Part shown: piece by piece, positions 47,481-47,885 of the stretch
Numbering within the stretch: position 1 is the first letter of the stretch
How the letters are laid out: the number at the start of each line of letters is the position of its first letter
Source of the DNA: Convolutriloba macropyga
Taxonomy: Eukaryota
Direction of reading: 5' to 3'
Length of the DNA: 64,000 bases
Assembly: GCF_964194025.1 (NCBI RefSeq)
Contig: NC_134472.1
Span: forward strand, 310,001-374,000
Translations under genes and position numbers: made by a program
The notes under the pieces: model-generated
Told to the model about the DNA's origin: nothing
The model's input: only the letters and a program-made list of their open reading frames with translations
The model's database searches: none

Positions 47481-47885
47481 TCTTGCATTAGATATGTAGA
47501 TTTTCGTACCCAATCTATATTTGACTCTAATATGCCTATAGCGCACACGATCTCCTCAGATGCAAAAATGAGAAAAGGTTTTGCTAAAACAATCTCCAAA
47601 AGAATACCCTTATTAAAGGACTACTGTAAAAGTAGAAACTTTGATATAGGTGACATAATAACTTTCAGAGCAGATAATAACTTAGTATATAACCTCATCA
47701 CTAAGGCTAATCATTATGAGAAGCCAACAATTAATACAATCAAAAAAACACTACTTGCTATGAGAGATCATGCACTAGGACTAAATTTACGCTGTATAGC
47801 GATGCCAAAAATAGCTTGTGGTTTAGACGGAATGGATTGGACAGAGGTATCTTCTCTAATTGAACAAACATTTAAGAATTCATGA
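47481..47885 (+). pseudogene. pol: TARG1/OARD1 (Poa1p-like) macrodomain
   Basis: IAHTISSDAKMRKGFA..VYNLITK..EKPT..LLAMRDHA..IAMPKIACGLDGMDW..V..IEQTF closely parallels TARG1-family macrodomains. Confidence 0.9.

Follow-up and report, generated by a model that had tools for sequence, protein, structure and literature searches.

The window analysed here, a 64,000 bp stretch of the Convolutriloba macropyga genome (contig NC_134472.1, positions 310,001 to 374,000 of the forward strand), carries an env-bearing, Ty3/Gypsy-like LTR element of 18,066 bp, which contains the whole of the macrodomain finding reported below. The features of the element, in window coordinates, are as follows.

44273..45055, plus strand: 5′ LTR (TGTACTG...CAGTATA), with the 4-bp target-site duplication AAGG to its left
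45058 (start), plus strand: PBS-like TGG, after the 5′ LTR
45317..46540, plus strand: gag, broken; weak Retrotrans_gag match (E 0.003, below the cut-off)
46583..47059, plus strand: aspartic protease region of pol; Asp_protease_2 match (E 0.004), 95% to P0012
47063..47341, plus strand: dUTPase-like spacer; fold match in the model of the relative P0002
47481..47910, plus strand: TARG1/OARD1-type macrodomain; Pfam PF01661, sequence and fold match to TARG1
47911..48175, plus strand: acidic linker to the reverse transcriptase (RT), with a conserved E(L/I)(A/E)TDF motif
48164..49546, plus strand: RT (YIDD) and RNase H; RVT_1 match (E 3e-18), stops present
49543..52002, plus strand: tether and integrase (H2C2 zinc finger, rve core, C-terminal tail); Pfam matches, broken
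56078..58492, plus strand: env-like fusion glycoprotein, in pieces; PF24664 Monjiviricetes_fusion (E 8.8e-26 and 1e-5)
61524..62338, plus strand: 3′ LTR, with a purine-rich tract ahead and the AAGG duplication behind

Assignment to Ty3/Gypsy (Metaviridae) is based on the LTRs with their target-site duplication, the PBS, the PPT, gag (in which a Cys/His-knuckle-like motif was read off the sequence) and the PR-RT-RH-IN order, and Ty3 RT was the best RT match in the lineage profile. A third ORF, env-like and placed downstream of pol ahead of the 3′ LTR (PF24664, E 8.8e-26), is in turn errantivirus-like. The available text of PMC13524379 describes the same LTR-gag-pol-env-LTR arrangement, PR-RT-RH-IN order and fusion-glycoprotein env for the errantiviruses, i.e. 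env-carrying Ty3/gypsy elements, whereas the element in the window measures 18 kb and has extra ORFs. The two LTRs are 95.4% identical over 783 aligned bases, and pol has accumulated 7 stops and 4 frame changes between positions 46592 and 51356.

A length of 18 kb is unusual for such an element. The 5′ leader contains a 38-bp tandem repeat in about four copies (45068–45216) directly past the primer-binding site, and a sparsely coding stretch of about 3 kb (52000–55100), including a (TC)37 tract at 54720–54793, lies between the integrase and the accessory ORFs. Small plus-strand ORFs fill the pol-env interval (55122–56077) and are possible accessory proteins; two of them, 55122–55454 and 55763–56077, are paralogues (30% identity, E 5e-16) with a coding-like third stretch between them. 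None of these small ORFs had a Pfam match, and an Atlas search with ORF 55763–56077 gave no convincing match. Past env, further ORF remnants (59107–61034, plus strand) include a Gln/Leu-rich, coiled-coil-like ORF (59400–59804) and a weak DUF7652 match (60693–61034, E 0.04).

Outside the element, positions 1–22250 of the window consist of an 82/83-bp satellite whose higher-order repeats measure about 409 and 486 bp. An uninterrupted SH3-SH2-SH3 ORF (27615–28313, plus strand), either a host gene or a retrocopy and by name presumably GRB2-like, begins about 0.8 kb past an RT fragment (26023–26775). The minus strand at 35154–38934 encodes a cysteine protease of adenovirus type (PF00770) and a fragment of an rve integrase, which suggest a decayed Polinton/Maverick-like element; together with the SH3-SH2-SH3 ORF, these remnants point to an animal host. 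A degenerate repeat of about 30 bp at 62714–63910 has open frames on both strands and lacks a Pfam match.

In the reading frame from 47481, the Pfam model PF01661 Macro scored 26.2 bits (cut-off 22), and the best solved relatives were human OARD1/TARG1 chains (E 8.8e-21, query residues 19–142), bearing out the presence of a macrodomain; a chance or artefactual origin was ruled out by these two scores together with the fold match. With the above-cut-off Pfam score and the alpha/beta/alpha fold of the P0002 model, the domain belongs to the macrodomain superfamily. The equivalents of TARG1 His32, Ser35, Thr83, Lys84, Pro118, Gly123 and Asp125 are all present, and six of their codons are found at 47544 (His), 47553 (Ser), 47700 (Thr), 47703 (Lys), 47820 (Gly) and 47826 (Asp). 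The alignment confirms the proposed correspondence of the LITK lysine and the CGLD aspartate to the catalytic pair, as the two motifs align with the TARG1 motifs bearing Lys84 and Asp125. According to excerpts of PMC6397177 and PMC7050489, Lys84 and Asp125 form the catalytic pair of TARG1, and His32, Ser35 and Thr83 contact the distal ribose.

The original prediction had regarded the domain as complete, which did not hold: its end at 47885 is a premature stop (47883–47885), and the last beta-strand (47886–47903), which aligns with the last strand of TARG1, is cut off behind it. The position between protease and RT stood as far as order is concerned (46583–47059, and RT from 48164), although the domain does not directly follow the protease, since about 95 codons of dUTPase-like fold and a short helical linker intervene, giving the order protease, dUTPase-like spacer, macrodomain, RT. 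Furthermore, the macrodomain frame differs from the frame shared by the protease and RT, with frame changes near 47340 and 48176. The window copy is thus a dead fossil of a Pol-borne macrodomain design.

The fold was modelled on the natural relative P0002 (91% identical; mean pLDDT 84.8, 94–98 within the macrodomain), and the top fold matches were macrodomains throughout. The best was human TARG1 (4j5q, rmsd 1.3 Å, Z 22.6); this protein, also named OARD1 or C6orf130 and of the ALC1-like class (PDB 4J5Q/4J5R/4J5S), has the same minimal macrodomain fold (rmsd 1.3–1.9 Å) at about 30% identity in the structural alignment, and is encoded by a stand-alone gene, whereas the element domain sits in a retrotransposon Pol. 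The DarG antitoxin of DarTG was second (Z 20.9) and shares the catalytic Lys; its sequence match to the window macrodomain (E 0.0018) is far behind that of OARD1/TARG1, and DarG is without the acidic partner residue, which the element domain keeps (PMC7050489, in excerpt). Of the proposed TARG1/DarG likeness, the TARG1 half is therefore upheld by sequence and fold, and the DarG half is weaker because DarG has no second catalytic residue and a far lower score. DarG proper was rejected as an identity (E 0.0018 vs 9e-21; Asp kept, unlike DarG), and Pfam scans of the element ORFs found neither a DarT-like partner nor a DarG C-terminal domain. The MacroD/viral Mac1 type was likewise rejected, with Z of 15–16 and 10–12% identity to the P0002 model.

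Within the TARG1-like subclass, TARG1 is the nearest solved relative by both sequence and fold, and the catalytic pair is accompanied by the His32, Ser35 and Thr83 equivalents. Three conserved positions set the subclade of the window apart from TARG1: Cys33 is replaced by Thr and Gly121 by Ala, and in loop 1, which reads Arg/Lys-Lys-Gly-Phe, Arg/Lys takes the place of the first Gly. The strict TARG1 pattern TKx(30,35)Px[IL]GxGxD (PMC6397177, in excerpt) is not matched by the window sequence, which has Ala for its first Gly. The pattern was found in 32/59 lineage and 102/129 other TARG1-like domains, a split that counts P0022 and P0063 as “other”, and Ala at its first Gly occurs in 18/129 of the other domains. 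On this basis the element domain is filed as a TARG1-type variant and not as a strict member.

In the full-length lineage domains, the Lys is conserved in 60/61, the Asp in 56/61 and both in 55/61, with the reservation that the 61 are not independent, many being near-copies. Column conservation in 11 multi-member representatives correlated with that in 127 other TARG1-like domains (Spearman 0.63 over 134 columns), P0022 and P0063 being placed in the lineage in this 61/127 split; our own profile was built on 135 “non-lineage” sequences, among which P0063 and P0092 are lineage members. Two families have decayed sites: P0167 (131 members) has lost the Asp, and P0178 (108 members) the residues equivalent to Ser35, Pro118, Gly123 and Asp125. 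Identity between the two subclades of the lineage is only 18–43%. As seen in these alignments, the predicted Pol-encoded TARG1-type fold and its catalytic residues have survived the deep divergence of the clade.

The spacer ahead of the macrodomain (P0002 residues 1–87) matched EIAV dUTPase with Z 8.9 over 83 residues and EBV dUTPase with Z 8.8, which is borderline and slightly above the level of common matches. It had no dUTPase Pfam match, and a search for intact dUTPase motifs in 6 relatives returned one stray IAQ only. Both the spacer and the E(L/I)(A/E)TDF motif behind it are also found in macrodomain-less relatives. VHAL/IHAM-like motifs, for which we make no claim of protease cleavage, follow the domain in one subclade and are absent in that of the window. 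Net charge ranged from 0 to +6 across the lineage domains and gave no sign of a DNA-specific surface.

Searching with the macrodomain yielded 14 longer proteins among 120 candidates. In P0009, one of these, protease, spacer, macrodomain and RT are joined in a single 831-aa ORF, and a search with this protein gave 108 proteins among 6,859 candidates. Of these, 107 Pol-like proteins were examined; 68 of them had no detectable spacer or RT match and were unscorable, leaving 39. The macrodomain lies between spacer and RT in 31 of these 39, a proportion biased upward because the query contained the macrodomain. In these 31 it is in one ORF with RT, and in 25 also with the protease, in line with the claim that it forms part of the Pol polyprotein. 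The collinearity with pol that had been read from the window copy, where the domain is out of frame, thus applies to its relatives. Absence or frame loss of the domain in intact relatives, which the original prediction had named as evidence against itself, was not what we found, the domain being in frame in 31/39 and the catalytic pair kept. On account of this arrangement we also rejected the possibility that only the window copy holds the domain, as a nested insertion or a piece of a host gene. Macrodomain-bearing proteins represent large clusters (P0009, 444 member sequences; P0169, 854; P0170, 498; P0172, 415).

The remaining 8 of the 39 are sister proteins in which the macrodomain is cleanly absent, and they too include large clusters (P0222, 373 members; P0229, 303; P0215, 185). 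Spacer and RT lie 278–309 aa apart where the domain is present, compared with 107–188 aa in the 8 proteins lacking it. Since both groups share the flanking motifs, the domain behaves as a module; to judge from these 8 close relatives, it is dispensable. An RT tree comprising 24 of the 31 macrodomain-bearing proteins (7 had less than 200 aa of RT), the window copy, the 8 macrodomain-less and 6 unlabelled proteins needed one macrodomain change (82/82, unstarred; 88% of bootstrap trees). The macrodomain tree gave the same two subclades, and the broader RT tree left the join of the two macrodomain-bearing subclades open, for which reason a single gain is not proven.

The sister families without the domain and the decayed sites of P0178 and P0167 are what would be expected of a neutral passenger, i.e. 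a domain captured from host or virus that a flexible linker tolerates and that is conserved for folding only. Against such a passenger stand the polar active-site Lys, kept in 60 of the 61 lineage domains when the subclades have diverged to 18–43% identity, and the fact that unrelated elements carry this domain type, at several positions; we consider the passenger explanation quite improbable.

The distribution of TARG1-type domains outside the lineage was examined in two ways. A representative search returned 2,691 matches at E ≤0.001, and among the 150 listed the 60 proteins of at least 200 aa were scanned; a second search, run with a profile on long proteins, gave 57 matches, and P0270 was added from the P0009 search. 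At least 21 LTR-element proteins outside the lineage carry the domain (Gypsy and one Copia-type), and one of these proteins is from Athalia rosae. In the 21 listed, the domain lies between RNase H and integrase in 6, after RNase H with the integrase not seen in 4, after the integrase in 7 (in P0280 behind a chromodomain), and after the integrase zinc finger in 1. The remaining three are P0294, an unrelated Gypsy protein (RT 27% identical to P0009) with the domain between protease and RT, one in which the domain ends a Pol with the integrase before RT, and one Copia-type RVT_2 protein. Lys and Asp are both present in 21/21 among the matches listed, a count inflated by the profile searches, which reward those residues.

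TARG1-type domains were also found in four RNA-virus polyproteins (P0040, P0096, P0130 and P0304). The phage search gave 26 records, which were only stand-alone TARG1-like genes at less than 60% identity, and the Atlas search gave Macro/OARD1-like clusters only. The element-borne domains fall into more than one group in the macrodomain trees, which agrees with their having been gained or exchanged repeatedly; the sequences suggest repeated capture or exchange of TARG1-type domains among LTR elements. The same trees join the lineage with the RNA-virus proteins P0130 and P0040 and the distant Gypsy proteins P0296, P0299 and P0301 (support 99/97 under LG+G4 and 87/82 under the mixture model, on long branches and in trees without a named host OARD1), and a viral origin of the lineage macrodomain may be taken from this as only a lead. 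P0296, P0299, P0301 and P0057 form a distant Gypsy group with an FMDD RT about 25% identical and the TARG1-type domain after the integrase, and their grouping with the lineage in some trees suggests that exchange between element clades may have taken place. As a separate observation, P0037, P0065, P0159, P0277, P0278 and P0281 have a TARG1-type domain fused to DNA ligase III-like proteins, in most of which the LIG3 BRCT adjoins it.

The 7 domains after the integrase and the 6 between RNase H and integrase, with P0280 behind a chromodomain, would suit an integration-site helper, which would travel on the pre-integration complex, read out or remove the PARP1/2 signal where integration leaves a gap, and speed repair or steer targeting like the chromodomains of other Gypsy elements; ADP-ribose on DNA ends is reversed by TARG1 (PMC8385414, in excerpt). 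In the present clade, however, about 600 residues separate the domain from the integrase, which lies downstream, on the other side of RT; the retained catalytic pair argues for catalysis over mere binding, and RNA viruses, which do not integrate, have the same domain type. An integration role is rated as unlikely.

Captured macrodomains in retroelements are already known. Epsilon-like endogenous retroviruses of ray-finned fish encode a macrodomain (Basta et al. 2009, via PMC4977317), and the account available there speaks of additional ORFs without giving the macro subtype or its position. The fish elements are likewise retroelements that captured a macrodomain, and belong to Retroviridae, whereas the element of the window is Ty3/Gypsy. 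The reservation in the original prediction that novelty may be partial is borne out by these fish records; what it missed is that unrelated LTR elements carry the domain elsewhere in Pol. TARG1-like homologues in viral genomes have been noted as well (PMC4245714, in excerpt). A TARG1-type domain in Gypsy Pol was not found described in the literature searched: titles and abstracts among the top-ranked literature matches held none for Gypsy/Copia Pol, although subscription journals, Repbase reports and bioRxiv supplements may hold one, and keyword searches of the available text of PMC6338049, PMC8120803, PMC4245714, PMC8672886 and bioRxiv 2021.11.30.470311 returned no such statement. The keywords macro, ADP and dUTPase were absent from the main text of PMC13524379 as available, and of the 10 occurrences of “macro” in its 7 supplementary files, the 4 inspected were species names.

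Background to the possible function comes from TARG1 biochemistry and from viruses. A1pp/macro domains are annotated in some transposons in Repbase, and coronavirus Mac1 and alphavirus nsP3 are polyprotein-embedded ADP-ribose erasers that counter PARP-based immunity. Those viral domains are MacroD-type, whereas that of the element is TARG1-type, a class reported to be efficient on U/T-base ADP-ribose. In the text available, the substrates of TARG1 include Asp/Glu-ADPr, phosphate-end ADPr and T-ADPr (PMC9411070, PMC8385414), and it acts on U-ADPr made by the antiviral PARP10, on which MacroD2 and ARH3 have low activity only (PMC13036486). U/T-base ADP-ribosylation in animals is so far mainly an in vitro observation according to the same source.

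TARG1 also hydrolyses O-acetyl-ADP-ribose and phosphate-end adducts (excerpts of PMC7050489 and PMC6397177), which together with the adjoining spacer, a probable derivative of a nucleotide-sanitising fold, would agree with metabolite clean-up, namely the removal of O-acetyl-ADP-ribose or small adducts, or primer and RNA-end repair, as housekeeping with no host defence involved. Yet no intact catalytic motifs were found in that dUTPase-like fold in the relatives searched, and the patchy gain and loss and the sharing with RNA viruses and phages resemble a conflict trait, which makes a housekeeping role quite unlikely.

Our preferred reading, which we hold to be somewhat more probable than its opposite, is a Pol-borne eraser for counter-defence, which would remove host-added ADP-ribose from element protein or nucleic acid. 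The variable spacer-RT linker would have received a TARG1-type module in an ancestor of the env-bearing Ty3/Gypsy-like clade. Translation of this module within Pol is predicted for intact copies, and the module would thus accompany RT and integrase to every destination of Pol, the particle included. Its Lys/Asp pair would strip mono-ADP-ribose put on element components by host ADP-ribosyltransferases, candidate substrates being Asp/Glu of Gag and Pol, phosphate ends, and U/T bases in genomic RNA and in cDNA. Adducts on U/T bases would plausibly block reverse transcription, and, by analogy to TARG1 biochemistry, their erasure would sustain reverse transcription and integration.

The interest of the finding rests mainly on the recurrence across LTR elements and on a simple assay, the isolated domain of about 140 aa being an easy target. 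Families that keep the domain, their sisters that lack it, and families whose site has decayed also offer a natural comparison. A wider version of the eraser reading, possible but doubtful, is that of a recurrent counter-defence module of LTR retrotransposons, with many gains and exchanges among Gypsy, Copia and RNA viruses, where invertebrate hosts would stop reverse transcription by ADP-ribosylating the U/T bases, or the ends, of the element's RNA and cDNA; if true, anti-transposon immunity would have a PARP-based arm not yet described, which would be analogous to bacterial DarTG. Counter-defence genes borne by parasites are indicative of host defences, and if many unrelated LTR retrotransposons keep an intact eraser, ADP-ribosylation probably acts on the replication of animal retroelements.
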